The notes beneath the pieces were generated by a model. It saw only the letters and a program-made list of their open reading frames with translations, had not been told where the DNA came from and did no database searches. The translations under genes were made by a program, and so were the position numbers. Below are positions 9,132 through 59,508 of a stretch of 64,000 nucleotides of DNA, piece after piece (the first letter of the stretch is position 1; the number at the start of each line of letters is the position of its first letter). The stretch is from Candidatus Omnitrophota bacterium (GTDB taxonomy: Bacteria; Omnitrophota; Omnitrophia; Omnitrophales; Aquincolibacteriaceae), in assembly GCA_903884815.1 (NCBI GenBank), contig CAISGE010000062.1:17-64016 (forward strand), read 5' to 3'.

Positions 9132-9803
9132 ATGTTCACGGGCATTATTGAGAATCAAGGCATCGTTAAAAAAAGGGAAGATCGCGGCGGGCAGGTCCGC
9201 TTCGGGTTCCGGTTCAGGAAAAAAGAAAAAGGACTCCGTGTGGGAGAAAGCATCATGGTCTCCGGGGTATGTTTGACAGCCGTTCGCGTGAGTCCCGAGG
9301 GTTTTGAAGCAGATGTGGTGCATCAGACGCTTCAAGCGACGACGCTTGGAGCGCTTAAGATGGGCGGTGTCGTCAATCTTGAGAGGTCGCTCAAGGTGGG
9401 AGATGGGATGGGCGGGCATTTTGTGACCGGTCATATCGACGGCCGCGGCACGATTTGTAAGATTGAAAAGAGAAAAAAGAATACGACCTTGTTCATTAAA
9501 GCTTCCAAGGATATAATCGCGCTGCTCGCGGACAAAGGCTCGGTTGCTTGTGACGGAATCAGCCTGACCGTCCAAAAAGTTCGCGGGGGAATTTTCCAAA
9601 TTGCTGTGATCCCTCACACGCTCAAGGTGACGACGTTGGGGATCAAGCGAGTGGGCTATGAAGTCAATCTCGAAGTGGATATTGTGGCGCGCTATCTTCA
9701 AATGTGTTTTGCTAAAGAAAAGTCCCGGAAAACTTTTTCATCGCGCGCGATACTCCGGGAACTTCTCCAGCAGGGGCGTGAGTGGAAAAAAGATTTGAAT
9801 TGA
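9132..9803 (+). CDS. ribE: Riboflavin synthase alpha chain
   Basis: Begins MFTGIIE..G, the classic riboflavin synthase N-terminus, with a duplicated lumazine-binding half (HFVTGHIDG); AGGAG RBS present. Confidence 0.85.
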   Translation: MFTGIIENQGIVKKREDRGGQVRFGFRFRKKEKGLRVGESIMVSGVCLTAVRVSPEGFEADVVHQTLQATTLGALKMGGVVNLERSLKVGDGMGGHFVTGHIDGRGTICKIEKRKKNTTLFIKASKDIIALLADKGSVACDGISLTVQKVRGGIFQIAVIPHTLKVTTLGIKRVGYEVNLEVDIVARYLQMCFAKEKSRKTFSSRAILRELLQQGREWKKDLN

Positions 9804-10186
9804 GTGCGTCGTCGGAAGTCCTTTCTCCGTTCCGTAAGGAGTTCCGCGGAATTCTGGGACAAGAGGGATGGGAGAAAAAGACGACCGAAGAGATCCTTCT
9901 GTGTGTTGATGAAGCCCTGACCAATATCATCCGGCACGCCTACCAGGGAAATCCCGGGAAGATGACGGTCTTGGTGCAGGTGAATCATGACAAGGTTGAG
10001 ATCGTGATGGAGGATCAGGGGAAGAAGTTCGATCCGACGCAAGTGCCTTCGCCGGAACTTCCGCGTGAAAAGCCGGGCGGTCTCGGAGTTCATTTTATCA
10101 GGACAATCATGGATCAGATGATCTATGATGCTCATTACCTTCAGGGAAACCGGCTTCGTTTGATCAAACATAGGCGTAAAATTTGA
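9782..10186 (+). CDS. Anti-sigma regulatory factor, RsbW/SpoIIAB-like serine kinase (HATPase_c)
   Basis: GTG start. The N-box EALTNIIRHAY, the segment DQGKKFDP and the G-box PGGLGVHFIRTIMD are typical of partner-switching kinases. Confidence 0.7.
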   Translation: MEKRFELSASSEVLSPFRKEFRGILGQEGWEKKTTEEILLCVDEALTNIIRHAYQGNPGKMTVLVQVNHDKVEIVMEDQGKKFDPTQVPSPELPREKPGGLGVHFIRTIMDQMIYDAHYLQGNRLRLIKHRRKI

Positions 10187-10202
10187 AAAGGAAGGTGGCG
10201 GC

Positions 10203-10547
10203 ATGAATATCCAGTCGAAGAATCAGGGGGATATACAAATGTTGGAACTTTCCGGCGAACTCGATTATCATTCTTCGCCGGAGCTTCGCGAAAAGTTGAC
10301 CGAGTTGACCGGGAAACAGACGGCAAAGATCCTCGTGGATCTTTCCGGCGTGGATTATATGGACAGCTCCGGCATTGCCACCTTTGTGGAAGCTTTCCAG
10401 AAGACCAAACGTTATCAGGGACGGCTCATTCTTGCGGCGCTTACGGATACGGTGCGGGGGGTTTTTGAGATTGCCAAGCTTGACAGTATTTTTGAGATAG
10501 CCCCTACCGTTGTCGAAGGGGTGGCGAGCTTGGGTTCCAAAGTTTAA
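10203..10547 (+). CDS. STAS-domain protein (anti-sigma-factor antagonist RsbV/SpoIIAA-like; also positioned like MlaB)
   Basis: STAS fold with a conserved phosphorylatable serine (YMDSSGIATFV); good RBS; lies directly upstream of mlaE/mlaF/mlaD. Confidence 0.75.
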   Translation: MNIQSKNQGDIQMLELSGELDYHSSPELREKLTELTGKQTAKILVDLSGVDYMDSSGIATFVEAFQKTKRYQGRLILAALTDTVRGVFEIAKLDSIFEIAPTVVEGVASLGSKV

Positions 10548-10572
10548 ACCGTTAGACGAGGATCCTTTTTCC

Positions 10573-11373
10573 ATGAACGAATTTTTAGGAAGTATCGGTC
10601 AGAGCGTGCTTTTTGTTTTAGCCGGAGTCGCGCGCTTGTGGGCACTGGGAGCCGCGGTCGTCGGCTTCACCCTCCAGTCCTTTTTAAATAAGAAGATTAT
10701 TCCGCGCGAAGTCTTTTTCCGTCAGCTGGTCCTGATTGGCATCGATTCTACGGCGATAGTCTCCCTCGTGGGCGCTTCGGTTGGGACGGTTCTGGCGTTG
10801 CAAGCGGCCTATTCTCTGAAGACCTTTGGGGCGCTCATGTACACAGGAAGCCTTGTGTGCGTGGCCATGGCCCGCGAACTGGGTCCCTTGATCGCCGCGA
10901 TCGTGATCTCTGGCCGCATCGGCGCGCGCATGGCGGCCGAGATCGGTACCATGATGGTCCAGGAAGAAGTGGATGCTCTTACCACCATGGGGATTAATCC
11001 CATCCGGTTTCTCGTCGCGCCGCGTGTTCTCGCGCTGGCCTGCATGCTCCCGTGTCTGACGGTCATCGTGGATATTGTGGGGATGATCGGGGGTTGGGCG
11101 ATCGGCGTGACAGGTCTCGGCATCAATTCTACTCTTTATATCGCGAAGAGTATCGAGGCGCTTTGTCTCAAAGATATCTATACCGGTCTTCTGAAGAGTA
11201 TTATTTTCAGCATTCTTATCGCGCTGGTGAGTTGCCATCAGGGGCTTTCGGTTTCGGGTGGCGCGGACGCGGTGGGGAAAGCCACCACGCAGGCGGTCGT
11301 GATCTCGATCGTGTTGATCATTGTGGTGGACTGTTTGGCGACGGCGGTTATTTATTACGCCTTGCCCACGTAA
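10573..11373 (+). CDS. mlaE: Mla/Ttg2-type ABC transporter permease
   Basis: Multi-TM protein with MlaE family motifs (ARELGPLIAAIVISGRIGARMAAEIGTMMVQEEVDAL); start at the ATG at 10573. Confidence 0.85.
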   Translation: MNEFLGSIGQSVLFVLAGVARLWALGAAVVGFTLQSFLNKKIIPREVFFRQLVLIGIDSTAIVSLVGASVGTVLALQAAYSLKTFGALMYTGSLVCVAMARELGPLIAAIVISGRIGARMAAEIGTMMVQEEVDALTTMGINPIRFLVAPRVLALACMLPCLTVIVDIVGMIGGWAIGVTGLGINSTLYIAKSIEALCLKDIYTGLLKSIIFSILIALVSCHQGLSVSGGADAVGKATTQAVVISIVLIIVVDCLATAVIYYALPT

Positions 11374-11380
11374 GGAATTT

Positions 11381-12187
11381 ATGAGCGAATCAGAACCGCA
11401 CGTTATTGAAATCAGGGATCTCGTTAAACGTTTCGGGGATTTGACCGTTCTGAACGGTATCAATGTCAAGATCCCGCGCGGCAAGATCACGGTCATTATG
11501 GGCGGTTCGGGGTGCGGCAAGACGACTTTTTTAAGGCATCTGATCGCTTTGCACCAGCCCACTTCCGGGGAGATCCTGGTGGATGGCAAGAACACCGTCG
11601 GACTCAATGAAAAGGATATGAACGAAGTGCGGCGCAAGTTTGGCATGCTCTTCCAGGGGTCGGCACTTTTTAATTCTATGACTGTCGGGGAAAATGTCGC
11701 GGTGCCCCTTAAGGAACACACTGATCTTTCCCGGGAGATCATTCGCATAATCGTTCGCGTAAAACTTGAGCTCGTGGGGCTTACGGGATTTGAGGATTTT
11801 ATGCCCCACCAGATCTCGGGCGGTATGAAAAAACGCGTGGCACTTGCCCGGGCGATCGCGCTCGACCCGAAGATCGTTTTCTATGATGAGCCGGGCGCGG
11901 GTTTGGACCCGATCACCGCGAGCATGATCGACCGGTTGATTCTGGACCTTAGCAAAAAACTTAATATCACTTCGGTTGTCGTTTCCCATGAAATGAAAAG
12001 CGCGTTTAGGATCGCGGACCAGATCATTGTTCTTCATAAAGGGAAAGTGCTGCAGGTCGGCTCGGCTGATGAGATCAAGAATTCAAAAGATTCGTATGTG
12101 CAGCAGTTTATTCAGGGAGAATCTGAAGGCGTTATTCCGTTCAAGCAAACCAGCGAAGCCTATTTGAAAGGGCTTCTCTCTACTTAA
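11381..12187 (+). CDS. mlaF: Mla/Ttg2-type ABC transporter ATP-binding protein
   Basis: Walker A (GGSGCGKTT), ABC signature (ISGGMKKRVALARA) and Walker B (VFYDEPGAGLD). Confidence 0.88.
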   Translation: MSESEPHVIEIRDLVKRFGDLTVLNGINVKIPRGKITVIMGGSGCGKTTFLRHLIALHQPTSGEILVDGKNTVGLNEKDMNEVRRKFGMLFQGSALFNSMTVGENVAVPLKEHTDLSREIIRIIVRVKLELVGLTGFEDFMPHQISGGMKKRVALARAIALDPKIVFYDEPGAGLDPITASMIDRLILDLSKKLNITSVVVSHEMKSAFRIADQIIVLHKGKVLQVGSADEIKNSKDSYVQQFIQGESEGVIPFKQTSEAYLKGLLST

Positions 12188-12208
12188 GCGTTTTCCGAGG
12201 AGGAAAAG

Positions 12209-12844
12209 ATGGATTCATCAAAGTCTTATTCGTCATCCGAGATCAAATCCGGATTTTTTGTGTTGGTCGCGCTTGTGATGCTTTTGGTGCTCACCTTCGT
12301 GGTCGGAGGCTATTTTAAGAAAGGGGCCAACGAATGGAAGGTCCAGTTCGGCTACCTGAGCGGTTTGAGCGACAGTGCTCCCGTTTATTATGCGGGGCGT
12401 GAAGTGGGCAAGGTGGACAGTATTCAGATCCTTCGTGGAAGTAATCGGCCTGTGCTCGTGACGATCAAGGTTTCCAACGATGCCTACGTCCGCCAGGACA
12501 GTGTGGCGTATATCGATACGCTCGGGATGATGGGGGAGAAGTTCATCGAGATCTCTGTCGGTTCAAAGGATGCGCCGCCCCTGGAAGCCGGTAAAGTGAT
12601 CGAGGGCGTGGACCCGATCCCGATGCATGTTCTGATCCGAAAAATGAACCTTTTGGCAGACGAAGTCGAAACGATGACAGTGAGCCTCAACCCGCTCTTG
12701 AAGAACGTCAATGACGTGGTAGCTGGGAATAAGGAAGAGATCTCCAAGAGTCTCACGAATCTTCATGAAGTTTCCGCGAACCTACGGGATATGACCGCCG
12801 ATCTCAAGCTCCATCCGTGGCGCCTGGTTCGCAAAGGTTCTTAA
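12209..12844 (+). CDS. mlaD: MCE-domain substrate-binding protein
   Basis: N-terminal TM anchor followed by an MCE domain; operon position after mlaE and mlaF. Confidence 0.75.
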   Translation: MDSSKSYSSSEIKSGFFVLVALVMLLVLTFVVGGYFKKGANEWKVQFGYLSGLSDSAPVYYAGREVGKVDSIQILRGSNRPVLVTIKVSNDAYVRQDSVAYIDTLGMMGEKFIEISVGSKDAPPLEAGKVIEGVDPIPMHVLIRKMNLLADEVETMTVSLNPLLKNVNDVVAGNKEEISKSLTNLHEVSANLRDMTADLKLHPWRLVRKGS

Positions 12845-25020: not shown

Positions 25021-26121
25021 TTGAGAATTATCGCCATCGCGAATCAAAAAGGCGGATGTGGAAAGACTACGACCAGCATTAATTTCTCGGCTTGTCTGAA
25101 TTTTCTTCAGAAGAAAGTGCTCGTGGTCGATCTGGATCCGCAGGGGCATTCCACTTGTGGGTTGGGTGTCAAAACTCAGAGGGGCATGCTGACCCTTTAT
25201 GACCTTTTGAGTCCTCTTCAGAGCGTGACGCCTTCTCTTTCCCAGGTCATCCAAAACCTTCGGACGGATTTTGATCTCCTTCCTTGTAACGCAAGCCTGA
25301 ACGCGATCGAAGAAGAATTCGGGTTTATGCCCAATTATCACCTTAAGCTTCGGGATCTTCTGGCCAGGATTTCTGAAGACCCTCGCCGATACGATTTTGT
25401 GGTGCTGGATTGTCCTCCGAATCTTGGCATGCTCACCTGGAACGCTCTGAATGCGGCCGATGAGATCATTGTTCCCGTGGAGCCCTCCTTTTTTTCGCTG
25501 CATGGCCTCGCCAAGATCTCGGAGACTCTTCAGATCGTGAATCGAAGCCGGGAGACGCCTTTGGCGGTTCACGCGCTTCTGACGCTTTTTAACTCCGAGG
25601 TGAATTTCTCCCATGAAATCTACGATGAAGTTCGCGCCCACTTCAAAGACAGGCTCTTTACAACGATCATTCACGAACATGTCAGTCTCAAAGAGGCCGC
25701 CGCGGCGGGGCAGAGTATTGTTCAGTATGGGCCACAATCACAAGCCTTTCAGGACTACCTGAATCTGGCGGTGGAATATCTGGAACGGGACTGGAATCGC
25801 AAACTCCCGGAAAAGGAGTTGGGTTGGGAGCAGGTTTATCAAAACCATTTTGGGCCGCGGCAGGTTTCGGACGGGATCCTCTTTCAGTTTTTGAGCAAGA
25901 CAGCGTCGTCTGTGGAGATCGCCGGGGATTTTAATCATTGGGTCGCAGAGCCTCTCTTGCGGCGCAATCAAGACGGGCTTTGGCAGAAGGTTATTCCGGT
26001 GGAGCCTAAAACGTTTCGATATAAGTTTATCGTGGATGGGGAGTGGCAGGTTGATCCTAGTCAACCCATGCAGCGAGAAAATGCTTATGGCGGCGTTGAT
26101 TCTTACGTGGAGTTATCCTGA
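25021..26121 (+). CDS. ParA/Soj-family P-loop ATPase fused to a C-terminal AMPK-beta-type glycogen-binding domain (CBM48)
   Basis: TTG start with an AGGAG RBS. Deviant Walker A (NQKGGCGKTTTSINFSACL) and Walker B (VLDCPPNL). The C-terminal ~85 aa (VEIAGDFNHW...YKFIVDGEWQVDPSQP) align closely to the AMPK beta GBD/CBM48 (SGSFNNW...YKFFVDGQWTHDPSEP). Confidence 0.8.
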   Translation: MRIIAIANQKGGCGKTTTSINFSACLNFLQKKVLVVDLDPQGHSTCGLGVKTQRGMLTLYDLLSPLQSVTPSLSQVIQNLRTDFDLLPCNASLNAIEEEFGFMPNYHLKLRDLLARISEDPRRYDFVVLDCPPNLGMLTWNALNAADEIIVPVEPSFFSLHGLAKISETLQIVNRSRETPLAVHALLTLFNSEVNFSHEIYDEVRAHFKDRLFTTIIHEHVSLKEAAAAGQSIVQYGPQSQAFQDYLNLAVEYLERDWNRKLPEKELGWEQVYQNHFGPRQVSDGILFQFLSKTASSVEIAGDFNHWVAEPLLRRNQDGLWQKVIPVEPKTFRYKFIVDGEWQVDPSQPMQRENAYGGVDSYVELS

Positions 26122-26933
26122 TGAATGAGGATGCGAAAAAATTGGTGCGTGGGCTGAAGGATCTTTCGCCGCTTTTCGGTGTTGTCCCTGAAGAAGTTGT
26201 AGCCCGCAGATCTCCGGAAGTTCAAATTTTAGGGGTCTCAAGCCCGGACTGTGAAGGCGATTCTTTGTTCCTTAACACATTTTTTGCTTCGCAGCTCCTT
26301 CTGTCGGAGAAAGCCTGCTCTCTGGTCAGCGTTTTATCCCGGTGTTCCAAGAATTTGCCAAGGGAGGGAGAAGTTTCTCCTGAATTGTTCGGGGAGCACC
26401 TTCAGCGCTACTCCCTTTATTGGGATGAGCTCCGAGATCTTGTAGGGGGGGCTTCCTCGGGAAAATCGGGGGGGGTGTTGCAGAGTCGGGATATTTTTTT
26501 GGATTTTGAGTACCGGCATTTGCTCCACTTTGAGGGGGCCATTTGTCTTCTGGATAAGTGGGTTCTACTTTTGAAGCCGAACGCTGAATCTCTGACTGAG
26601 GGTTATAAAATGATGAAGGTTGGGCATTCCCTTAATCCGCAGCTTGAGTTTTGTATCGTATTGGAAGGGAGGGCTGAGGAGGCGAAAGGGGAGATGCTCT
26701 TTAAAAGATTCTCGGATTTCACTATGAGGTATCTTGATATTCAGTTGGGTTGGCTTGGTTGGATGGATCTTGCGGACCCCGCCCGTCATTTCTCGTCAGC
26801 GCTCCATGTGGAGCCTCTGCGCTTTCGATCCTGGGACCCGAAGCCCAGCTTGCAAAAGTTTGTCCTCGCCCATTGGGTTGAATCCCTAGAGAAGAAGATG
26901 GCTGTTGGAATTTCCGAGGGGGGCTCGCGATGA
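26121..26933 (+). CDS. Hypothetical protein, possibly a degenerate ParA/MinD-fold pseudo-ATPase
   Basis: Translationally coupled to the upstream gene (ATGA overlap). The N-terminal segment ILGVSSPDCEGDS sits where a Walker A would be but lacks lysines; assignment is tentative. Confidence 0.4.
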   Translation: MNEDAKKLVRGLKDLSPLFGVVPEEVVARRSPEVQILGVSSPDCEGDSLFLNTFFASQLLLSEKACSLVSVLSRCSKNLPREGEVSPELFGEHLQRYSLYWDELRDLVGGASSGKSGGVLQSRDIFLDFEYRHLLHFEGAICLLDKWVLLLKPNAESLTEGYKMMKVGHSLNPQLEFCIVLEGRAEEAKGEMLFKRFSDFTMRYLDIQLGWLGWMDLADPARHFSSALHVEPLRFRSWDPKPSLQKFVLAHWVESLEKKMAVGISEGGSR

Positions 26934-27466
26934 TCGCCGCCCCCGAACGCATTTTTCGCCAGGAGATCTTTCAATCGATCCGCTCCTCCATCCAGGAACT
27001 TCATGCGGATAAAGTGATCCTTGAGGACGTGAATGGAGCCCCCTACCTCTTTAAAAGCAAAGATGCGCAGGTTTGGGCGCGGATTTTTTACAGGTCCATG
27101 CGGGATTATTCCCTTGTGGAACTTCAGCAGGAGATCAGGAAGCTCTGGGTGCTAATGCCGAGTAGTGCGGTACTCTATCTTTTTTATCCAGAATTGGACC
27201 GTCAGCAGATCCTCAAAATGAACGGCTTTAGCGATCGTTTGAGTTTTTTTGAATATGCGGGACTTTCTGGCGTGGCGCATGAACAGAGGGACATCAAAAT
27301 CTGTAAGTGGATGCCCTCCTGGATTCAAGAGGGGATTTCCCCTCGAGAGGGTGTGGTTGCTCCTCTGGTGCCGGTTTCGCCCGCCAGCTTTTTGAGAATT
27401 TCTTGTCTGACACCGCAGGAGATCCAGGGCCTTACGGAGTTGTCTTTGGCTTTATCCCGGGTCTGA
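26930..27466 (+). CDS. Hypothetical protein
   Basis: Translationally coupled (ATGA); no recognised domain. Confidence 0.4.
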   Translation: MIAAPERIFRQEIFQSIRSSIQELHADKVILEDVNGAPYLFKSKDAQVWARIFYRSMRDYSLVELQQEIRKLWVLMPSSAVLYLFYPELDRQQILKMNGFSDRLSFFEYAGLSGVAHEQRDIKICKWMPSWIQEGISPREGVVAPLVPVSPASFLRISCLTPQEIQGLTELSLALSRV

Positions 27467-27538
27467 AGCTACACGTGAAGGGTTTTTATATTTCGTTCTT
27501 GATGGTGCCTCCCAACTCTTCTATAATCACCCCCACTT

Positions 27539-28255
27539 ATGACAAGCTCAATTATCCAGAATCTTGATACCCTCAAAAAAGCCCAGCGCTTGGACAGTGA
27601 GATTCATCAAGCCCAAGGTCTCCTGGAAGAGATTCCTGCAAAGCGAGCCAAGCTCAAAGCTGAAATGGAATTCGAGAAAGGGCGTCTGCATGAGCTTGAA
27701 AAATCCCTCAAGGATATTCAGGTGAAGTTGAAGGACCGGGAATTGGAGCTTTCTCAAAAAGAAAATCAGATCAAGAAACTTGACGGGCAACTCTCGCAGG
27801 TAAAAACGAATAAGGAATACGCCGCGTTGCAGCAGGAAGTCGCTTCTCTCAAAGCCGACAACTCTCTTCTCGAGGAGGGGATCATTCATATTTTGGATGA
27901 AGTCGATGCTGCCAAAGACGAGACTCGGAAGGAGAAAGAGAAGCTTGCTCTTATTACAAAATCCTTTCAGGAAAAAGACGATGCGTTGGCCGGTCAGGAA
28001 AAGACCTTGCAGATTCGCCTTGCTGAGATGAAGAAGCAACGCGACGAAGCAGTCGTCCAGTTACCTCTCGAACTCGGAGAGCTCTATCAAAGGATTGCTT
28101 TCAAAAAACAAGGGCTTGCGCTGGCGGCTGTAAATGGTGAAAATTGCGCGGCCTGTCAGATGAATTTGCGTCCGCAGCTTCTTAACGAAATACGGCTAGG
28201 GGAACAGATCATTGTTTGCGAGAATTGCTCCCGCATTCTCTATTACGAAGCTTAG
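27539..28255 (+). CDS. Coiled-coil protein with C-terminal C4 zinc ribbon (zf-RING_7/DUF164-like)
   Basis: About 190 aa of coiled coil followed by C..C-(17)-C..C (CAACQMNL...CENCSRILY). Confidence 0.6.
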   Translation: MTSSIIQNLDTLKKAQRLDSEIHQAQGLLEEIPAKRAKLKAEMEFEKGRLHELEKSLKDIQVKLKDRELELSQKENQIKKLDGQLSQVKTNKEYAALQQEVASLKADNSLLEEGIIHILDEVDAAKDETRKEKEKLALITKSFQEKDDALAGQEKTLQIRLAEMKKQRDEAVVQLPLELGELYQRIAFKKQGLALAAVNGENCAACQMNLRPQLLNEIRLGEQIIVCENCSRILYYEA

Positions 28256-28416: not shown

Positions 28417-28445
28417 TTGACAGGGTATTAAGGTAAAGATATACT
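28417..28445 (+). promoter_or_regulatory. Pmra-like sigma70 promoter (TTGACA-17-TATACT) upstream of mraZ
   Basis: Exact -35 hexamer, 17-nt spacer and a TATACT -10, about 60 nt upstream of mraZ. Confidence 0.6.
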
Positions 28446-28460
28446 GCCGCCGATAATAAA

Positions 28461-28485
28461 GTGGGAGGAAGTGGGAGATAGTGGT
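28461..28485 (+). promoter_or_regulatory. MraZ operator: three direct GTGG(G/T) repeats at 10-bp periodicity
   Basis: GTGGGaggaaGTGGGagataGTGGTagata between the promoter and the mraZ start, matching the known MraZ box architecture in E. coli and B. subtilis. Confidence 0.55.
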
Positions 28486-28508
28486 AGATAAGAAAGGAGT
28501 AGGAATCC

Positions 28509-28946
28509 ATGTTTTACGGTGAGTTTGAACATGTGATCGATACGAAAAGCCGCGTGATGATCCCCGCGAAATTCCGCGAGATCTTCAAGGAGCGCTATGC
28601 AGAGCGCTTTTTTATCACCCGCGGTCTCGATCAGTGCTTATTTGTTTTCACCGAGGAACAGTGGAAGACGGAAGAGAAAAAGTTTCGCGACATGCCTTTC
28701 ACCAAAGCCGAATCCAGAACCTTCAATCGTCTTTTCTTTTCAGGAGCTTGTGAAGTGGTGTGTGACAAACAGGGGAGAATTCTCATTCCGGATTATCTGA
28801 AGAGCTATGCGGAGATCAAGGCGGATGTCACGATCGTGGGCGTTTCAAGTCGTATAGAAATTTGGGCGAAAGAAAAGTGGCAGGGATTTTTCGATCATCA
28901 TAAAGGTCATTTTGAAGAACTCGCGGAAAAATTAGTCGCAGAATAG
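28509..28946 (+). CDS. mraZ: Transcriptional regulator MraZ
   Basis: Duplicated MraZ (DUF-UPF0040) halves (IDTKSRVMIPAKFRE and CDKQGRILIPDYLK). Confidence 0.9.
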   Translation: MFYGEFEHVIDTKSRVMIPAKFREIFKERYAERFFITRGLDQCLFVFTEEQWKTEEKKFRDMPFTKAESRTFNRLFFSGACEVVCDKQGRILIPDYLKSYAEIKADVTIVGVSSRIEIWAKEKWQGFFDHHKGHFEELAEKLVAE

Positions 28947-28959
28947 AAAAGGAGTCATT

Positions 28960-29298
28960 ATGGTCTATCACGCCAGAACGAAGAGTGCCGTGGATGTATT
29001 GCGTTTCAATGGGGACCTTGATGCGCTAAGCATGATCAAAATGAAAGATCGGATGAACCGTTTAATGAACAGGAACCACAAGCGTCTTTTGTTGGACCTG
29101 AAAGATACGAAGCACGTGGAATTAGCAGGCGTCGGTATCTTGGTCGATCGTCTGCGTAAAGTGCGCGAACAAAAAGGGGACATCAAACTTTGCAATCTGC
29201 GTCCCGAAGTTGAGAAGACTTTCCAAATGATCGGGGTCAATGGCTTGATGGAAAGTTATTCGACGGAAGAAGAGGCGATCCTTAGTTTTGCGTCATAG
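28960..29298 (+). CDS. STAS-domain protein (anti-sigma-antagonist-like, non-phosphorylatable) inserted between mraZ and rsmH
   Basis: STAS fold with a strong RBS; the usual DSSG phospho-site is replaced by ELAGVGIL. Confidence 0.6.
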   Translation: MVYHARTKSAVDVLRFNGDLDALSMIKMKDRMNRLMNRNHKRLLLDLKDTKHVELAGVGILVDRLRKVREQKGDIKLCNLRPEVEKTFQMIGVNGLMESYSTEEEAILSFAS

Positions 29299-30196
29299 TC
29301 CGGTTCTTTTACAGGAAGTTCTCGATCAGTTGGGCCTCAAGTCCGGGGCTATCGTGATGGATGGAACTCTCGGGAGTGGGGGACACTCGCAGGCGATGCT
29401 TGCTAAGATCGGTCCCAACGGAAAATTGATCGGGTTTGATCAGGATCCCGAGGCGATTGCACGATGCAGGGAATTGTTTCAAGCCGACACGCGGGTCGTG
29501 CTGGTACATGAGAATTTCAGGAATTTAAAAAAAGTTTTTCCGGCTCTTGGTGTAGCGGCTTTCGATGTAGTTCTTTTGGATATCGGGACTTCGTCGGAGC
29601 AGTTGGCGGATGGGAAGCGCGGTTTCAGTTTCCAAGCGGAAGGGGAATTGGATATGCGGATGAATCCGGAAGTCGGTTTGAAAGCTTCAGAGTTGCTCGC
29701 TCAAATGTCCGAGGTCGAGCTGGCAGACCTCTTTTACCATTATGGCGAAGAGCGGCACTCTCGACGTTTTGCTCGCGTGATTGTTGAAAGAAGGCGCCAG
29801 CAGCCCATCCGTACGATCGAAGATCTCAACCAAACTCTCGAGCTCGCGGTTCCCCCGCATTTACGCTTCAAGAAAGGGAATAGGCCTTCATGGGCTCGGC
29901 GTCATCCCGGGACGAAGGTATACCAAGCCCTTCGCATAGGCGTGAATGATGAACTGGAGGCGCTGAAAGAGGGCATGTCGGGGGCTTTTGAGCATCTCTC
30001 GAAGGGCGGCAGGTTGGGAGTCATCAGTTTTCACTCGATCGAAGACAGGATCGTGAAGCAGCAGTTCCGCAAGTGGGATGACGAAGAACAAGGAAAATTG
30101 ATTTTTCGTAAACCTATGGTTGCAAAGCGGGAAGAAATATTGAATAATCCAAGATCAAGAAGCGCAAAACTAAGAGTCATCGAGAAAATATCATGA
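29288..30196 (+). CDS. rsmH: 16S rRNA (cytosine1402-N4)-methyltransferase
   Basis: TTG start overlapping the upstream stop. N-terminus H.PVLL.EV, SAM motif DGTLGSGGHS and FDQDP.A. Confidence 0.85.
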   Translation: MRHSPVLLQEVLDQLGLKSGAIVMDGTLGSGGHSQAMLAKIGPNGKLIGFDQDPEAIARCRELFQADTRVVLVHENFRNLKKVFPALGVAAFDVVLLDIGTSSEQLADGKRGFSFQAEGELDMRMNPEVGLKASELLAQMSEVELADLFYHYGEERHSRRFARVIVERRRQQPIRTIEDLNQTLELAVPPHLRFKKGNRPSWARRHPGTKVYQALRIGVNDELEALKEGMSGAFEHLSKGGRLGVISFHSIEDRIVKQQFRKWDDEEQGKLIFRKPMVAKREEILNNPRSRSAKLRVIEKIS

Positions 30197-30585
30197 AAGG
30201 CAGTGGAAAAATACTAATTCTTATAACATTGTTAGCCTGCTCGATGCTTTTTTATGTGCATCTGCAGGTTGCTTCCGTCTTGGTATCTTTAGATCTGCAT
30301 CGAAGTTCCCGCCAAGTTGCCGAGAAACAAGAGTTGCTCCGCAGATTCCAATACAAGGTTGATCAGTTGAGGGCCCCCCGCCTTCTTGAAGAGAAGATGA
30401 TGCGTCACGATATGGGTTTGGCGCTTCCCAATAAGGTCCAGGTCGTTGAGGTGCCGGCCGCTGCGGATATCGTTATTCCCATGGCACCGGCACAAAAAGT
30501 TGTGCGAACTTTTTCCTCCGAAGTGTCGAGCTTTCTTGGACGTTGGATACAGACGGCCCAGGCCAAGACCGATCTCTCCTCTTAA
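30193..30585 (+). CDS. ftsL: FtsL-like cell-division protein (single TM + short coiled region)
   Basis: Position between rsmH and ftsI; N-terminal TM helix, small size and overlap with the rsmH stop. Confidence 0.5.
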   Translation: MKGSGKILILITLLACSMLFYVHLQVASVLVSLDLHRSSRQVAEKQELLRRFQYKVDQLRAPRLLEEKMMRHDMGLALPNKVQVVEVPAAADIVIPMAPAQKVVRTFSSEVSSFLGRWIQTAQAKTDLSS

Positions 30586-30588
30586 AAA

Positions 30589-32343
30589 ATGCGAGCGTTG
30601 CTTTCGCCGCGTCGGTTCTGGTTTCTCTACATCGTTTTCTTTGTTATTTTCGGTCTCATCATCTATCAGATCACCCAGTTGACTTGTTTTCATCAAGCCT
30701 CCCTTCTTAAGCTGGCGCACCGCCAACATAATCTGACGATTGATACACCCTCTTTGCGCGGACCGATCACGGATCGCAACGGGAATGAGTTCGTTACCAA
30801 TCTCAAGATTCCGTCCATATATGCAGTGCCACGCGCAGTCGCAGAGGAAGACCTTCCGGGGCTCAGCCGTGAGATTGCCAAGATCTTGAAGGTTGATCCA
30901 AAGTGGGTGAAGGACCGCTTAGCGCGCGATAAATCGTTTGTGTGGCTCAAGCGGCGCGTGACTTTTGAGGAATCAGAAAAGATTAAAAAACTCGAGTGCC
31001 CCGCGCTCGGAATCCTGGAAGAATATAAGAGATTTTATCCACAAGGGTCCATGCTGGCCCAGGTGCTCGGATTCTCAACGGTGGATAACCAAGGGGTCGA
31101 AGGGCTTGAGCGTTCCATGGATGCGGATCTTCGAGGGAAACCCGGAAAACGAGTCACCCAGCGGGATGCCAAAGGGCGTGAGATCAAGGCCTTTGAGATC
31201 ACGAGCGTGCCCGTGGTCGATGGGAACCGAGTGGTATTGACGATCGATCAGCATCTTCAGTACCTGACCGAGAAATCGCTGGAACAGGCCTTCAAACAGT
31301 GGAAAGCCAAGGGGGCCTGGGCGATCGTGATGGATCCGAATACGGGGGAGATCTTGGCCATGGCGAATCAACCCGGGTTCGATCCTAACCATTACGCGAA
31401 CGTCGGTCCTGACGCCAAGCGTAATCGTGCTGTTACGGATATGTATGAGCCTGGATCGATTTTTAAGATCGTTGCCGCAAGCGGGGGGCTGAATGATGGC
31501 ACGGTGACTCCTGAAACAGTGATCAACTGCGAGAACGGAAAATGGAATTATGGCTTTAAGACGCTCCATGACGTTCATCCGTATGGCATGTTGCCCATGA
31601 TGGAAGTGATCGTGAAATCCAGCAACATCGGGACCGTGAAGATCGCGCTTAAAATGGGGGCCCAACAATTTCAGAGTTACGTGACGGGCTTCGGCTTCGG
31701 AGCGCTGACCGGGATCGACCTTGCCGGCGAAGCGCCGGGTTTCACGCGGCCGCCTTCTCAATGGTCCAAGACCTCTCCGTATAATATCCCGATGGGCCAG
31801 GAAGTTATGGTGACGGCTCTCCAAATGGTGACGGCGATGTCTGTGATCGCGAATGGGGGGAACCTCGTACGGCCCTATATCGTGTCGCGCGTCGAGGATT
31901 CTGCCGGCGTGATTATTAAGCAGAAAAAGCCCGTGATCAAACGGCGGGTGATCAAGCCAGAAACAGCCGCGACGATGCGGGAGATCCTGACCCAGGTCGT
32001 GGAAAGAGGGACTGGGACGAAAGCGAAGATCCCGGATGTTTTGGTCGCGGGTAAGACGGGTACGGCACAGAAGATTTTGCCCGGGGGCAAGGGCTATTCT
32101 CACACTGCTTTCATGTCTTCTTTCGTTGGTTTCGCGCCTGCGGATAATCCTCGCTATGCCATGGTGGTGGTTCTCGATGAAGCGCGTCCCATGTATTACG
32201 GGGGTGTTGTTGCCGCACCAGTCTTCAAGGAGGTCTTGGGTGCGGCGCTTTTGACGCAGGGAGCTCAACCCTATCATGAGAGTGCGCCGCCCTTGACGAA
32301 GGAGCAGGCTGCGGCGGCGGCCGACCTGGCGGTCGCTGATTGA
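30589..32343 (+). CDS. ftsI: Penicillin-binding protein, class B transpeptidase (FtsI/PBP3-like)
   Basis: PBP dimerisation and transpeptidase domains with SxxK (SIFK), SxN (SSN) and KTGT (KTGTAQ); position in the dcw cluster. Confidence 0.85.
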   Translation: MRALLSPRRFWFLYIVFFVIFGLIIYQITQLTCFHQASLLKLAHRQHNLTIDTPSLRGPITDRNGNEFVTNLKIPSIYAVPRAVAEEDLPGLSREIAKILKVDPKWVKDRLARDKSFVWLKRRVTFEESEKIKKLECPALGILEEYKRFYPQGSMLAQVLGFSTVDNQGVEGLERSMDADLRGKPGKRVTQRDAKGREIKAFEITSVPVVDGNRVVLTIDQHLQYLTEKSLEQAFKQWKAKGAWAIVMDPNTGEILAMANQPGFDPNHYANVGPDAKRNRAVTDMYEPGSIFKIVAASGGLNDGTVTPETVINCENGKWNYGFKTLHDVHPYGMLPMMEVIVKSSNIGTVKIALKMGAQQFQSYVTGFGFGALTGIDLAGEAPGFTRPPSQWSKTSPYNIPMGQEVMVTALQMVTAMSVIANGGNLVRPYIVSRVEDSAGVIIKQKKPVIKRRVIKPETAATMREILTQVVERGTGTKAKIPDVLVAGKTGTAQKILPGGKGYSHTAFMSSFVGFAPADNPRYAMVVVLDEARPMYYGGVVAAPVFKEVLGAALLTQGAQPYHESAPPLTKEQAAAAADLAVAD

Positions 32344-32462
32344 CGCCTTTCATTGTATACTGAACAAGAGAGTGATATAATCCCGGCCGTTTCGGTCCTG
32401 CCCAAGGCGACAAGCTCCATGAAGGGCTGCACCAATTAATAGGAATTTAAGAAGGTGTTATA

Positions 32463-32600
32463 GGGACGTCCCAATTTCATTCTTATAAAATTGAAAATTG
32501 GGACTGTCCCAACGATTCATTAATTTTTTGATTATACGTCGGGGCGTCCTAATTCTCAGTTAACCATGGACGGTGAATGAGGACAGTCCCGATATTCATT
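32463..32600. repeat. Four iterated ~20-bp repeats with a palindromic core GGGAC(N)GTCCC followed by AAYNNTTCATT, spaced about 40 bp apart upstream of tRNA-Pro
   Basis: Copies read directly: GGGACGTCCCAATTTCATT (32463), GGGACTGTCCCAACGATTCATT (32500), GGGGCGTCCTAATTCTCAGTT (32541), GGACAGTCCCGATATTCATT (32581). Confidence 0.7.
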
Positions 32601-32620: not shown

Positions 32621-32698
<78 letters not shown>

Positions 32699-32770
32699 TT
32701 TTTTTTTGCGTTGCAATTGAAAGCCGAAGGCTTTCCATAAAGTGAGACGAAAAAATGGGCAGCACCCGAA

Positions 32771-32879: not shown

Positions 32880-32894
32880 ATCCTATCGCCCCGA
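32880..32894 (+). repeat. 15-bp perfect direct repeat of the tRNA-Pro 3' end (atcctatcgccccga; first copy 32682-32696)
   Basis: Exact 15/15 duplication 198 bp downstream; both copies are followed by a T-run. Confidence 0.8.
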
Positions 32895-32973
32895 TTCTTT
32901 TTTTAAGTAATATCAATAAAATTCTATCCGGTTTTTTCCGGCCGGTTTCCTTCCGTTAGAGGGCAAGACGCCG

Positions 32974-56662: not shown

Positions 56663-56879
56663 GCTGTTTTTATTTTCTTTCCTTTTGTTGGGGACCCTTG
56701 TTGCTTCTCAGGTTTGCCAAGCCGAGGAAGGGGCTTCAACGGCGCCGTGTTCCCGCGAGCTCGAAGGGATCAAGAGCCAGCTCGCAGCGCTTGACCAGCA
56801 GGAGAAACAAATCCTCGCCAACCAGCAGGAAACTTTTCAAAGATTGGATCAGCTGCGTATTTGGGTCCACCGGAAATAA
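56643..56879 (+). CDS. Small secreted protein (signal peptide + short coiled coil)
   Basis: Signal peptide (MKSARSKLFLFSFLLLGTLVASQVCQA); overlaps the upstream stop. Confidence 0.4.
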   Translation: MKSARSKLFLFSFLLLGTLVASQVCQAEEGASTAPCSRELEGIKSQLAALDQQEKQILANQQETFQRLDQLRIWVHRK

Positions 56880-56889
56880 CTTTTTTCAA

Positions 56890-58182
56890 ATGAACCCTCT
56901 TTCCTTTACCGGGCCTGCTCAATTTCACGGGACTTACGCACCTCCCGGCGACAAATCCATATCCCATCGTGCCATCCTTTTCGGCGCTTTGTCTGAGGGA
57001 GAGAGTGTCTATGAGAATTTTCTGGAGGCCGAGGACTGTCTCCATACCCTCGAAGCGATGCGGCAGATGGGGGTGGGGATCGTTCATGAAAAGGGAACCG
57101 GCAAGGTCGTGATCTCGGGCAAGGGGCTTCATGGTCTTGGCGCGCCCGGCAAGTCACTTTACTTAGGAAACTCCGGAACTTCCATGAGGCTTCTCATGGG
57201 GATCCTCGCGGGCCAGCGTTTTGAGACGGTGCTGACTGGAGATCCTTCGCTCTCGGGACGCCCCATGCGTCGCGTGACCGACCCTCTGAAGCAGATGGGA
57301 GCTCAGATCAAGGGTAAGGAGAACGGAAATTTCGCACCCCTCACGATCCGGGGAGGGAAACTCCGCGGGATCGATTTTGACAATAAACTTTCAAGCGCCC
57401 AGGTCAAATCCGCGCTTCTTTTTGCGGGCATGTACGCGGAAGGTCGGACGCTCGTGCGTGAAACTATTCCTTCGCGTGATCACACGGAACGTTTTCTTGA
57501 AGCGTCGGGGGCCCATTTTCAAAAAGTGGGAGGTCACCTGATCGTTGAAAAAACGGAAATGCTTTTGCCGCTGCACGCGCGCGTCCCGGGCGACATTTCT
57601 TCCGCGGCCTTTTTTATCGTGGGCGCCGCGATGATCCCCGGATCAGAAATCACCATTCAAGATGTCGGACTCAATACCACGCGCACGGGACTTCTTGAAG
57701 TTTTGAAGCGCATGGGAGCGACGATCGAAATCGAGATCACGCAGACGATCCCGGAGCCGATGGGAAATATTCATGTCCGGGGCGCAAGACTCCAGGGCAC
57801 AGGGATCACGCACGAGGAAATCCCATCCCTCATTGATGAATTGCCGGTTCTGATGGTCGCGATGGCGCTTGCGGAAGGCGAAAGTCTAATCTCCGGAGCG
57901 GCGGAGTTGCGCGTTAAAGAGACCGATCGCATTCAATCGATGGTCCGGAATCTTAAAGCTATCGGTGCTTCGATCGAGGAGTTGCCGGATGGTTCCCTCA
58001 TTCGCGGTGTGGAAGCTTTCCACAGCGCGACAGTGGAAAGCTTCGGGGATCACCGGACTGCGATGAGCATGGCCGTGGCGAGCCTTGCCACGAAGGGAAC
58101 GATCACGGTCACGGATACGGCCTGTATAGCGACATCCTACCCGACTTTCACGGAGCATTTTCTGCGTTTAATCCTGAATTAA
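56890..58182 (+). CDS. aroA: 3-phosphoshikimate 1-carboxyvinyltransferase (EPSP synthase)
   Basis: EPSPS motifs (PGDKSISHRA, LGNSGTSMRLL, RPM.RV). Confidence 0.9.
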   Translation: MNPLSFTGPAQFHGTYAPPGDKSISHRAILFGALSEGESVYENFLEAEDCLHTLEAMRQMGVGIVHEKGTGKVVISGKGLHGLGAPGKSLYLGNSGTSMRLLMGILAGQRFETVLTGDPSLSGRPMRRVTDPLKQMGAQIKGKENGNFAPLTIRGGKLRGIDFDNKLSSAQVKSALLFAGMYAEGRTLVRETIPSRDHTERFLEASGAHFQKVGGHLIVEKTEMLLPLHARVPGDISSAAFFIVGAAMIPGSEITIQDVGLNTTRTGLLEVLKRMGATIEIEITQTIPEPMGNIHVRGARLQGTGITHEEIPSLIDELPVLMVAMALAEGESLISGAAELRVKETDRIQSMVRNLKAIGASIEELPDGSLIRGVEAFHSATVESFGDHRTAMSMAVASLATKGTITVTDTACIATSYPTFTEHFLRLILN

Positions 58183-59333: not shown

Positions 59334-59386
59334 CGCACCTATAGTTTGATTTTTTTTATCTCCTCTCCGGTTCTGTTATTCCCGCG

Positions 59387-59435
59387 CCACCGCCTGCGAA
59401 GCGGCGGGGTCCCGCCGGAGTGCAGGCGGGAAAAG
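59387..59435. repeat. REP-like palindromic element, copy 2 (ccaccgcctgcgaagcggcggggtcccgccggagtgcaggcgggaaaag)
   Basis: Shares a 30-nt identical core with 44211-44240; hairpins plus a T-tract downstream of mreB. Confidence 0.6.
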
Positions 59436-59508
59436 CGGCCTCCTGGCGTTTGAAGCAGTTTTCTTTTCAGGGTCTTTTTATTTATCGCTTATCGGAGATC
59501 GTGCCCCC

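Follow-up and report, generated by a model that had tools for sequence, protein, structure and literature searches.

The canonical 5' part of the dcw cluster in E. coli, B. subtilis and Mycoplasma runs mraZ-rsmH-ftsL-ftsI and continues with murE and further genes. A 64-kb stretch of DNA from a Candidatus Omnitrophota bacterium, referred to as the window, keeps this gene order but differs by an extra gene for a STAS-domain protein between mraZ and rsmH and by a stop after ftsI at a tRNA-Pro. The locus thus raises the questions of whether the additional gene is genuine, whether insertion and truncation belong together, and what the encoded protein might bind. All elements named in an earlier note on this DNA were recovered in the window at the coordinates assigned there, almost to the base (Table 1).

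Table 1 Features of the dcw locus and of the RsbW-like/STAS gene pair in the window.
Feature	Position	Strand	Description
Sigma-70-type Pmra promoter	28417..28445	+	TTGACA 28417-28422, 17-nt spacer, TATACT 28440-28445
CCGATAATAAA element	28450..28460	+	Between -10 hexamer and first MraZ box; near-invariant among relatives' upstream regions
Putative MraZ operator	28461..28484	+	Three GTGG direct repeats, 6-nt spacers, 10-bp phase, 3' of -10 hexamer
mraZ	28509..28946	+	145 aa; Pfam MraZ 3.3e-34
dcw-embedded single-domain STAS protein	28960..29298	+	112 aa; PF01740 1.7e-16; SpoIIAA/RsbV-like
rsmH/mraW	29288..30196	+	302 aa; TTG start; Methyltransf_5 6e-96, full length
FtsL/DivIC-like small bitopic protein	30193..30585	+	130 aa; assigned by position and profile match
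ftsI-type class B penicillin-binding protein	30589..32343	+	584 aa; PBP_dimer and Transpeptidase domains
tRNA-Pro(CGG)	32622..32698	+	ARAGORN and Rfam; conserved cluster end
att-like duplicate of tRNA-Pro 3' end	32880..32904	+	25-nt direct repeat of 32681-32705, 88 % identity
RsbW-like gene	9782-10186		With second STAS, first genes of mlaE / ABC-ATPase / mlaD operon
Second STAS	10203-10547		MDSSG motif; Mla-type operon

Promoter, operator and genes of the cluster

The Pmra-type promoter matches the consensus at 11 of 12 positions and is the top sigma-70-type match within 27.4-33.2 kb. In an alignment of about 57 distinct related upstream regions its hexamers and their spacing are kept, while the flanks diverge. 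The GTGG boxes, which start at 28461, 28471 and 28481, are likewise conserved across these regions, and the pattern GTGGN6GTGGN6GTGG occurs a single time in the 64 kb compared to none in 100 shuffles. Three boxes with 6-nt spacers downstream of the -10 hexamer agree with the known MraZ operator architecture (PMC12957436), as had been proposed for this promoter and its phased repeats, and a promoter followed by three GTG(G/T) boxes is also the arrangement of the canonical cluster. Judged by consensus and conservation, the boxes are a predicted MraZ binding site; MraZ bound there, just past the -10 hexamer, would be expected to shut off or modulate the operon that encodes it. The CCGATAATAAA element is probably the transcription-start region. 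The MraZ translation contains the predicted DNA-contact residues K13, R15 and R90 in two DxxxR motifs, a further likeness to canonical clusters; the M. genitalium residues used for comparison are K13/R15/R86 (PMC12957436).

The STAS gene, which the earlier note had placed as an insertion between mraZ and rsmH, is real and strongly constrained. A Shine-Dalgarno sequence, AAGGAG, lies 6 nt 5' of its ATG. At E <= 0.001, 205 homologous proteins were recovered, and nearly all of the best 120 of these are 111-112 aa long. Substitutions between related genes fall chiefly on the third base of the codon, with 9/4/41 as one example, and identity to relatives is higher for the STAS protein (47-96 %) than for RsmH (40-85 %). 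The protein scores 60.1 bits against NCBIfam TIGR00377, the family of anti-sigma-factor antagonists, above the cut-off of 53.45, and its AF2 model (pLDDT 78) finds the SpoIIAA-SpoIIAB complex as best PDB match with a TM of 0.85. Apart from the a-priori possibility raised in the earlier note, nothing speaks for an artefact, be it a spurious STAS reading frame or an assembly join that mimics a cluster end at the tRNA. Against this explanation stand the retained length and sequence, the codon-position bias, the Shine-Dalgarno sequence and the confident fold; moreover, dozens of assemblies made independently show the same step from ftsI to tRNA-Pro. We take the explanation as refuted and give it next to no credence.

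The STAS stop and the rsmH start share an 11-nt overlap, AGYTTTGCNNCATAA, which is kept in most related loci. The TTG at 29288, already suggested as the overlapping start, is the sole start that retains the conserved N-terminal HxPVLL of RsmH. The STAS gene is translationally coupled to rsmH here. The 130-aa protein encoded next has no Pfam or NCBIfam match of its own. However, its Omnitrophota profile matches the same-position proteins of other phyla (hhalign 95.6 %, E 1.2e-8), three of four of which have DivIC or FtsL Pfam matches, two of these weak. For the ftsI product the top NCBIfam types are SpoVD, PenA and FtsI, each under its equivalog cut-off; the PBP2 (mrdA) equivalog is a separate gene at 60797.

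Conservation of the insertion and the break after ftsI

For comparison, 59 related loci from Omnitrophota species-representative genomes were used. In all 59, as far as the contigs reach, a CT398-like gene borders the order mraZ-STAS-rsmH-ftsL-ftsI, so that the STAS gene lies between mraZ and rsmH throughout; these loci keep the promoter and the MraZ boxes as well. The tRNA-Pro(CGG) was found downstream of ftsI in 38 of the 44 Omnitrophota loci scanned, directly or beyond gshB/GCS2. Since the tRNA recurs after ftsI and the gene order is kept, the truncation is ancestral to this Omnitrophota clade and no misassembly, which bears out the abrupt cluster end described before. The genes just 3' of ftsI vary among the related loci, and no mur genes were found at this place. 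In the window, the att-like copy of the tRNA 3' end lies 199 bp downstream of the original, and its first 15 nt are identical.

The statement that no mur, ftsW, ftsA or ftsZ genes follow within the next 30 kb holds by Pfam and NCBIfam, with two caveats. An EPSP-synthase-family gene at 56698-58182 was considered as murA and rejected, as it is aroA. RodA, in turn, is a paralogue of FtsW; rodA belongs to an elongasome cluster, mreB-mreC-mreD-mrdA-rodA, at 58281-63584. A survey reported most dcw genes as conserved in Ca. Omnitrophota (PMC12283558), so the remaining dcw genes must lie elsewhere in the genome. A split ancestral cluster with its genes reported as retained resembles what is known from the PVC superphylum, where dcw clusters are fragmented. 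Here, however, the break is defined (ftsI to tRNA-Pro) and conserved across a deep Omnitrophota clade, and at least one genome labelled Omnitrophica lacks it.

That genome has the STAS gene between mraZ and rsmH and retains ftsI-murE. Besides this other Omnitrophica, lineages under the labels Hydrogenedentes, Abyssubacteria and Binatia/"Deltaproteobacteria" have a STAS gene embedded at the same site. Across most of these non-core lineages, contigs reaching past ftsI show murE next, and murF too in two places. The idea that insertion and truncation form one remodelling was therefore not sustained: as other lineages and the Omnitrophica-labelled genome combine the same insertion with murE after ftsI, the two are independent events. 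The break after ftsI is best explained as a separate, older rearrangement within Omnitrophota.

A STAS family without the phospho-serine

The earlier note had reported the phospho-serine of canonical STAS proteins to be missing, with AGVG in place of DSSG. The loss of the serine was confirmed, but the register had to be corrected: in a profile alignment to SpoIIAA, the motif ELAG stands where SpoIIAA has DSSG, with Leu55 at the position of Ser58. This leucine is invariant in every member of this Omnitrophota clade. In the wider dcw STAS group the site is occupied by a hydrophobic or aromatic residue, mostly Tyr outside Omnitrophota, and in most of these non-Omnitrophota members the Tyr could in principle be phosphorylated. 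Otherwise the protein resembles SpoIIAA and RsbV closely: it is a single STAS domain of ~110 aa with the beta-alpha fold, these proteins are its top sequence matches among solved structures, and helix alpha2 keeps its G-x-G cap. Conservation within the protein is strongest in the loop-helix face. Besides the residue at the serine site, it differs from SpoIIAA/RsbV by its place in the mraZ-rsmH core and by a signature of its own, LV(E/D)RL in alpha2 and GD(I/L)KL in beta4.

An exhaustive profile search recovered further single-domain STAS relatives lacking the serine. Outside the core clade, seven of the eight looked up adjoin rsmH, six of them demonstrably between mraZ and rsmH; at locus L069, a 161-aa gene upstream of the STAS gene is MraZ-like by tblastn. 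In 46 of 47 metagenome loci of the Tyr type, the STAS gene is next to mraZ, rsmH or both. One non-Ser relative (P0152) is without dcw context, and a Ser-type control STAS gene lies outside any dcw cluster. In neighbor-joining trees the non-Ser proteins tend to group away from the Ser forms, although their monophyly is weakly resolved, with the exact split in 8 of 60 bootstraps. The STAS start overlaps the mraZ stop in a Hydrogenedentes locus (L067) and at one locus of P0352; for some Hydrogenedentes-like loci at least, the gene is thus translationally coupled to mraZ. Taken together, these proteins form a non-Ser, SpoIIAA-like single-domain STAS group that occurs in several lineages, with genes that usually sit between mraZ and rsmH. 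The dcw STAS protein seems to be an accessory component of this cluster that has escaped recognition; no published description of a dcw-embedded STAS was found in the literature searched.

Candidate partners of the dcw STAS protein

The RsbW-like gene and second STAS gene at 9.8-10.5 kb had been taken to link the dcw STAS protein to partner switching. One may accordingly propose a constitutive, non-phosphorylatable antagonist of an RsbW-type anti-sigma kinase, e.g., the product of 9782-10186, through which transcription of the division operon feeds partner switching for a sigma factor or envelope functions. Replacing Ser58 of SpoIIAA by a non-phosphorylatable residue gives a constitutive binder. 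The nearest relatives in sequence and fold, SpoIIAA and RsbV, include structures complexed with their kinases, and both the TIGR00377 score and the conserved loop-helix face fit this proposal. The RsbW-like gene, however, lies 19 kb away and is adjoined by its own phosphorylatable STAS (MDSSG), and the pair is a self-contained kinase and STAS module heading an Mla-type operon, with no alternative sigma factor beside it. The two STAS proteins of the window share only 21 % identity. No RsbW-type kinase or PP2C phosphatase gene was found within 5-10 kb at ~115 dcw-STAS loci, whereas canonical outgroup STAS genes stand directly beside both. The suggested tie to this kinase is hence unsupported, and we consider such an antagonist unlikely. 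Given the TIGR00377 score and the retained G-x-G cap, a distant GHKL kinase could nonetheless be a partner.

Our preferred reading, held with modest confidence and drawn from sequence comparison, is that the dcw STAS protein would bind its partner independently of phosphorylation, would be dosed through the promoter under MraZ control and would probably act on MraZ or RsmH. A role as binding subunit is suggested by the missing serine switch together with the lack of a kinase or phosphatase encoded nearby. Its activity would then be set by its amount, and so by the promoter. The likeliest partner would be a product of the bicistronic core, MraZ or RsmH, as judged from conserved adjacency and coupling, and binding would use the loop-helix face with which canonical STAS proteins contact kinases. 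Once inserted, the gene would be kept next to mraZ and rsmH by the generally rigid dcw gene order anyway. MraZ and RsmH reportedly act antagonistically in E. coli (described, it is said, by Eraso et al. in 2014).

MlaB, the STAS subunit of the lipid transporter MlaFEDB, sets a precedent for a small STAS protein whose control of a partner other than a kinase needs no phosphorylation. By analogy, the dcw STAS protein might serve as accessory subunit to an ATPase or a membrane machine, such as the ABC ATPase FtsE or MlaF, or the divisome proteins FtsL/FtsI, with no action on MraZ, RsmH or a kinase. MlaB is a weak fold match, NCBIfam mlaB_1 is hit at E 4e-4, and the operon predicts co-expression with FtsL and FtsI, two division proteins of the membrane. 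The similarity is marginal, however: mlaB_1 scores 20.7 bits, far below its cut-off of 90, and the TMq of 0.62 to MlaB is well under the value for SpoIIAA. The genomic context differs as well, since the gene is always found between mraZ and rsmH and never beside ftsL/ftsI or transporter genes. We regard this explanation as improbable; the Mla operon of the window has a STAS protein of its own.

The STAS gene within the division cluster

An earlier note had described a STAS gene inserted between mraZ and rsmH, the TTG start of rsmH overlapping its stop codon. Homologues of this 112-aa protein, here termed dcw STAS after the division/cell-wall (dcw) cluster in which it lies, number 205 at E <= 0.001; among the 120 listed nearly all are 111-112 aa long, and every name given is Candidatus Omnitrophota or Omnitrophica. 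Nucleotide differences between the window and locus L005 are distributed over the three codon positions as 9/4/41 with only 5 amino-acid changes, and against relatives generally they likewise fall mostly at third positions, which indicates purifying selection on a genuine ORF. A spurious ORF lacking conservation in relatives, the possibility that the note had raised against its own reading, is thus ruled out by the homologues, the third-position bias and a confident STAS fold.

Features of the window discussed in the text
Feature	Coordinates	Strand	Basis or remark
ORF, 1430 aa	9-4301	+	no Pfam match at E <= 1e-4
RsbW-like gene	from 9782	+	HATPase_c_2; RsbW and SpoIIAB models under cut-off
Second STAS, 114 aa, MDSSG	10203-10547	+	directly after RsbW-like gene; overlaps mlaE
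mlaE	10510-11373	+
ABC ATPase	11321-12187	+
mlaD	12209-12844	+
Genes ahead of the dcw promoter	25021-28255	+	ParA/MinD-type ATPase to CT398-like gene
Promoter (Pmra)	TTGACA 28417-28422; TATACT 28440-28445	+	17-nt spacer; sequence reading
CCGATAATAAA	28450-28460	+	between -10 hexamer and first MraZ box
Three GTGG boxes	28461-28484 (starts 28461, 28471, 28481)	+	sequence reading
mraZ	28509-28946	+	Pfam MraZ 3e-34; Shine-Dalgarno ahead
dcw STAS, 112 aa	28960-29298	+	Pfam STAS (PF01740) 1.7e-16; AAGGAG 6 nt ahead of ATG
rsmH	29288-30196	+	Methyltransf_5 6e-96
130-aa gene	30193-30585	+	FtsL/DivIC-like (called from profile-profile comparison)
Class B PBP (ftsI)	30589-32343	+	PBP_dimer + Transpeptidase (Pfam)
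Palindromes	32460-32600		GGGAC(N)GTCCC
tRNA-Pro(CGG)	32622-32698		ARAGORN + Rfam
mreB-mreC-mreD-mrdA(PBP2)-rodA	58281-63584	+	complete elongasome cluster

The protein scored 60.1 bits against the NCBIfam anti-sigma-factor-antagonist superfamily model TIGR00377 (cut-off 53.45) and remained far under the NCBIfam cut-offs for SpoIIAA proper and for MlaB; Pfam and NCBIfam hold no subfamily model specific to dcw STAS. Its AF2 model adopts the STAS topology (pLDDT 78), with SpoIIAA chains from SpoIIAB complexes as top PDB matches (TM 0.85), and a profile of the orthologues found SpoIIAA, TM1442 and RsbV as nearest solved relatives. Both fold and sequence family are therefore those of SpoIIAA/RsbV-type antagonists.

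The insertion is shared by the related loci examined. Scanning one genome per species yielded 59 Omnitrophota or uncultured loci and two outgroups. By tblastn with the window proteins, and as far as contigs extend, the CT398-like gene and the order mraZ-STAS-rsmH-ftsL-ftsI were found in 59/59 loci, with identities to the window proteins of 47-96 % for STAS, 63-94 % for MraZ and 40-85 % for RsmH; precomputed Pfam labels at two look-ups agreed with this. Apart from the inserted gene, the window follows the dcw order of mraZ first, then rsmH, ftsL and ftsI (Pfam, NCBIfam; ftsL by profile-profile comparison). The call of the 130-aa gene as FtsL/DivIC-like concerns a product with an N-terminal hydrophobic segment and no Pfam or NCBIfam match; its orthologue profile matches same-position proteins in four loci of other lineages (hhalign 95.6 %, E 1.2e-8), three of which have DivIC or FtsL Pfam matches, two of them weak.

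TTG 29288 is the first start in the rsmH frame and the sole one retaining the conserved N-terminal HxPVLL, so it must be the rsmH start, which confirms the proposed overlap at 11 nt. The junction AGYTTTGCNNCATAA, kept in most Omnitrophota loci, carries the C-terminal STAS codons (S-F-A-x-stop) together with the rsmH TTG; the invariant STAS C-terminus thus partly reflects a dual-coding constraint, and STAS and rsmH are translationally coupled. In a Hydrogenedentes locus (L067) and at the P0352 locus the overlap is instead that of the mraZ stop with the STAS start.

The gene directly 5' of the dcw promoter encodes a CT398/HP0958-like coiled-coil zinc-ribbon protein and stands ahead of mraZ at almost every Omnitrophota locus of sufficient length; besides the window, the observation covers L001, L005-L063, L066 and L118. 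In the window it is preceded by a ParA/MinD-type ATPase that ends in a CBM48/AMPK1_CBM glycogen-binding domain and, after this, by two conserved proteins of 270 and 178 aa without family match.

Loss of the regulatory serine and spread of the non-Ser group

Profile alignment to B. subtilis SpoIIAA (1auz) places Glu54-Leu55-Ala56-Gly57 of dcw STAS opposite Asp57-Ser58-Ser59-Gly60, and hence Leu replaces the regulatory serine, Ser58. The phospho-serine is missing, as had been noticed from the sequence, and the register originally given (AGVG for DSSG) needs a shift of two residues. All Omnitrophota orthologues carry V(E/D)LAG(L/V)G with an invariant Leu at this phospho-site, most relatives from other lineages carry Tyr, and dcw STAS lacks the conserved phosphorylatable Ser/Thr with which helix alpha2 begins in such antagonists. 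Conservation is highest over residues 53-65 (the loop and first half of helix alpha2) and in GD(I/L)KL of beta4. The loop-helix part probably corresponds to the SpoIIAA face that binds SpoIIAB in their complex, with altered chemistry: L or Y at the phospho-site and, within the helix, an (E/D)R pair of one acidic and one basic residue.

An exhaustive profile search over 1.84 billion representatives gave only 14 matches at E <= 1e-30. Among its best 150 matches are single-domain proteins whose phospho-site holds Tyr, Leu, Phe or Ile, the remainder having Ser. Large proteins of 600-1500 aa with three tandem STAS domains and the motif SSGGWG (P0125-P0141, from outside the window) are also among the best matches of the Omnitrophota STAS profile. 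Searching a protein collection with divergent non-Ser forms returned 285 matches, with Tyr at the phospho-site in 80 of the 115 newly returned. Among the names given are Deltaproteobacteria bacterium GWA2_57_13 and RIFCSPLOWO2_02_56_12, Candidatus Binatia, Candidatus Hydrogenedentes and Omnitrophica, and one cluster includes a protein under the name Candidatus Abyssubacteria.

Gene order at loci of individually inspected STAS homologues
Protein (locus)	Label	Gene order or context
P0291 (L066)	'Deltaproteobacteria'	CT398-like, RNase H, mraZ, STAS, rsmH, FtsL, ftsI
P0320 (L067)	Hydrogenedentes	mraZ, STAS, rsmH, x, ftsI, murE, murF
P0352		mraZ, STAS, rsmH, x, ftsI, murE, murF
P0313 (L068)		mraZ, STAS, rsmH, DivIC, ftsI, murE
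P0149 (L069)		161-aa gene (MraZ-like by tblastn), STAS, rsmH, DivIC, ftsI
P0157 (L118)	Omnitrophica	CT398-like, RNase H, mraZ, STAS, rsmH, x, ftsI, murE
P0238 (L119)		mraZ, STAS, rsmH
P0152 (L120)	Ile at phospho-site	non-dcw context, 2.3-kb contig
P0366 (L070)	KSB1; Ser-type control	between secDF and bactofilin gene

A metagenome scan restricted to Tyr-type STAS with (S/N)Y(M/V)G(V/I)G yielded 47 loci, in 46 of which mraZ and/or rsmH flank the gene. Non-Ser STAS genes thus have dcw context at 59/59 Omnitrophota loci, 46/47 metagenome loci and 7/8 individual look-ups; an RNase H gene intervenes between the CT398-like gene and mraZ at L066 and L118. The dcw-embedded non-Ser group is defined in the present analysis and is not a curated family. 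The window protein has all its characters, namely a single STAS domain, a non-Ser site, LV(E/D)RL and GD(I/L)KL, and a position between mraZ and rsmH. Neighbour-joining trees set non-Ser apart from Ser forms, the exact split appearing in 8/60 bootstrap replicates (mean best Jaccard 0.94); bootstrap support is weak, and a single origin of the group is no more than suggested.

Fold and family are common to dcw STAS and SpoIIAA/RsbV, whereas dcw STAS lacks both the phosphorylatable Ser and a kinase or PP2C encoded nearby. Three RsbW-type and two PP2C proteins served as tblastn queries against all these loci and the window (1.35 Mb). No RsbW-type or PP2C gene was found in the flanks of ~115 dcw-STAS loci, and dcw STAS has no cognate GHKL kinase/anti-sigma factor encoded alongside. 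The sole matches were at position 9782 of the window, 19 kb from the dcw operon, and at L064 and L065, the loci of the canonical outgroups; the two outgroup STAS proteins (34-35 % identity, Bacteroidota and Ignavibacteriales) carry ISSAG and lie within classical PP2C-phosphatase/STAS/RsbW-kinase modules.

A distant RsbW-type kinase, as the earlier note envisaged, is a possible partner of dcw STAS. The particular link drawn to the RsbW-like kinase (9782-10186) and second STAS at 9.8-10.5 kb finds no support: that kinase has its own MDSSG-bearing STAS within an Mla-type operon, this second STAS is 21 % identical to dcw STAS, and no such kinase lies near the ~115 loci. The genes from 9782 to 12844 form a self-contained module heading the Mla-type operon. 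They are tightly packed, and the STAS in MlaB position of what looks like a lipid transporter could be under a dedicated serine kinase. It is also possible that dcw STAS serves an ATPase or membrane partner in the manner of MlaB, another protein in the STAS family. MlaB, however, is a subunit of the Mla transporter encoded in the mla operon, whereas dcw STAS has no adjoining mla genes and scores 20.7 bits with mlaB_1 against a cut-off of 90, and a different STAS belongs to the Mla-type operon at 10.5-12.8 kb.

The putative MraZ operator and a candidate role for dcw STAS

The promoter TTGACA-17-TATACT and the GTGG repeats, proposed beforehand as an MraZ operator layout, stood up to comparison. 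The promoter is the top sigma-70-type match within 27.4-33.2 kb, with 11/12 consensus positions, and GTGGN6GTGGN6GTGG occurs a single time in the 64-kb window and in 0 of 100 shuffles. When the 140 nt 5' of mraZ from ~57 distinct loci were aligned by eye, TTGACA and TATACT at their 17-nt distance, CGATAAT, and the three GTGG boxes in 10-bp phase were kept while the surroundings diverge. The string CCGATAATAAA is almost invariant over the ~57 related promoters, a conservation exceeding the needs of transcription start alone.

The window thus has three GTG(G/T) boxes with 6-nt spacers adjoining a promoter, in agreement with the architecture described in PMC12957436. The MraZ base contacts reported there are Lys13, Arg15 and Arg86; translation of the window gene reads K13 and R15 within DTKSR and R90 within DKQGR. 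The first box lies ~15 nt past the -10 hexamer, near the expected start site, so that MraZ, if bound here, would presumably interfere with initiation or early elongation.

We propose that dcw STAS would act as a binding module without a serine-phosphorylation switch. Not being switched in this way, its activity would follow its own concentration, which the MraZ-controlled promoter would set. As partner we modestly favour MraZ or RsmH over a distant kinase or an MlaB-like ATPase or membrane partner, because the gene holds an invariant position between both and is coupled to one or the other. Work by Eraso et al. in 2014 is said to have shown that RsmH counteracts MraZ toxicity in E. coli. More tentatively, and with doubt prevailing, dcw STAS might regulate the MraZ/RsmH pair directly and post-translationally, e.g., as an anti-repressor that titrates MraZ away from the GTGG boxes or as an adaptor coupling RsmH to MraZ.

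The dcw cluster is among the most conserved bacterial gene arrangements. To our knowledge, the control of MraZ and the reason for the adjacency of RsmH to MraZ are still unclear, and the missing regulatory partner has a concrete candidate in this strongly constrained extra gene from a reversible-binding family, always between the two and present in several uncultured lineages. If the regulator reading is true, dcw STAS would be the first protein known to feed into MraZ activity and an unrecognised part of the division-cluster control circuit, spanning lineages labelled Omnitrophota, Hydrogenedentes, Abyssubacteria and Binatia-like. It would also illustrate a route by which a partner-switching protein drops its phospho-switch and is re-used as a dosage-controlled subunit. 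A full-text literature search combining STAS or anti-sigma antagonist with mraZ, rsmH or dcw returned no paper with both, the main comparative dcw-evolution study lying outside its scope. What is new is the conserved dcw genomic role and the lost switch; the STAS fold and family are known, and promoter, operator and split cluster belong to ordinary types.

The end of the cluster at tRNA-Pro

The window shares the mraZ-rsmH-ftsL-ftsI order and the boxes with the canonical dcw operon, but adds STAS and lacks the continuation murE-murF-mraY-murD-ftsW-murG-murC-ftsQAZ. In line with what had been read from the sequence, no Mur ligases, mraY, murG, ftsW, ftsQ, ftsA or ftsZ were found between ftsI and the window end. 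Instead ftsI is followed by tRNA-Pro, SDR, SpoU methylase, acylphosphatase, metallophosphoesterase, LigA, an integrase-family recombinase and tRNA-Glu, and further downstream by eight pur genes, a fusion of a Sua5/YrdC-family gene with a low-molecular-weight phosphatase domain, SHMT (serine hydroxymethyltransferase), aroA and mreB-mreC-mreD-mrdA-rodA. Rfam gave no structured RNA other than tRNA in the region. Two candidates for missing genes were rejected: the supposed murA at 56.7 kb is aroA (TIGR01356 413 bits, above cut-off), and the supposed ftsW at 62.5 kb, after mreBCD-mrdA, is rodA. The elongasome cluster lies ~26 kb past ftsI with aroA ahead, so that the window has both class B PBPs but, of the SEDS proteins, that of the rod system alone.

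What follows ftsI varies between relatives and is never a mur gene (among others HSDR_N-like, RmuC, lectin-like protein, ArgRS, DUF192/PilZ, gshB with a GCS2 ligase). ORFs of ~455 aa located ~1 kb 3' of ftsI in divergent relatives were considered as Mur ligases and proved to be GCS2 glutamate-cysteine ligases, with gshB ahead on the opposite strand. This gshB/GCS2 pair occupies the interval between ftsI and tRNA-Pro, ~0-2.5 kb after ftsI, in the divergent loci L029-L062, and is absent there in the window's close relatives.

The abrupt end at the tRNA is real. Directly or behind gshB/GCS2, tRNA-Pro(CGG) follows ftsI in 38 of the 44 loci scanned, and the junction is therefore old and reproducible over independent assemblies. 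This recurrence, together with the gene order, rules out a misassembly at the tRNA and fixes the split point of the dcw cluster in one Omnitrophota clade as ftsI/tRNA-Pro. Most dcw genes have been reported as conserved in Ca. Omnitrophota (PMC12283558), and those missing here are thus expected elsewhere in the genome. In the metagenome Tyr-type loci murE follows ftsI wherever the contig is long enough to detect it; the Omnitrophica-labelled locus L118 likewise keeps ftsI-murE, which places the break after the acquisition of STAS.

The tRNA-Pro 3' end (32681-32705) is duplicated 199 bp downstream, at 32880-32904 (25 nt, 88 % identity), and gene content past the tRNA differs between relatives, with restriction-type, RmuC and lectin-like genes. 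The 3'-end copy and this variable content suggest past integration at tRNA-Pro. Between ftsI and tRNA-Pro, a gap of 280 nt contains several copies of the short palindrome GGGAC(N)GTCCC, including an 18-nt inverted repeat (32492-32509 / 32581-32598).
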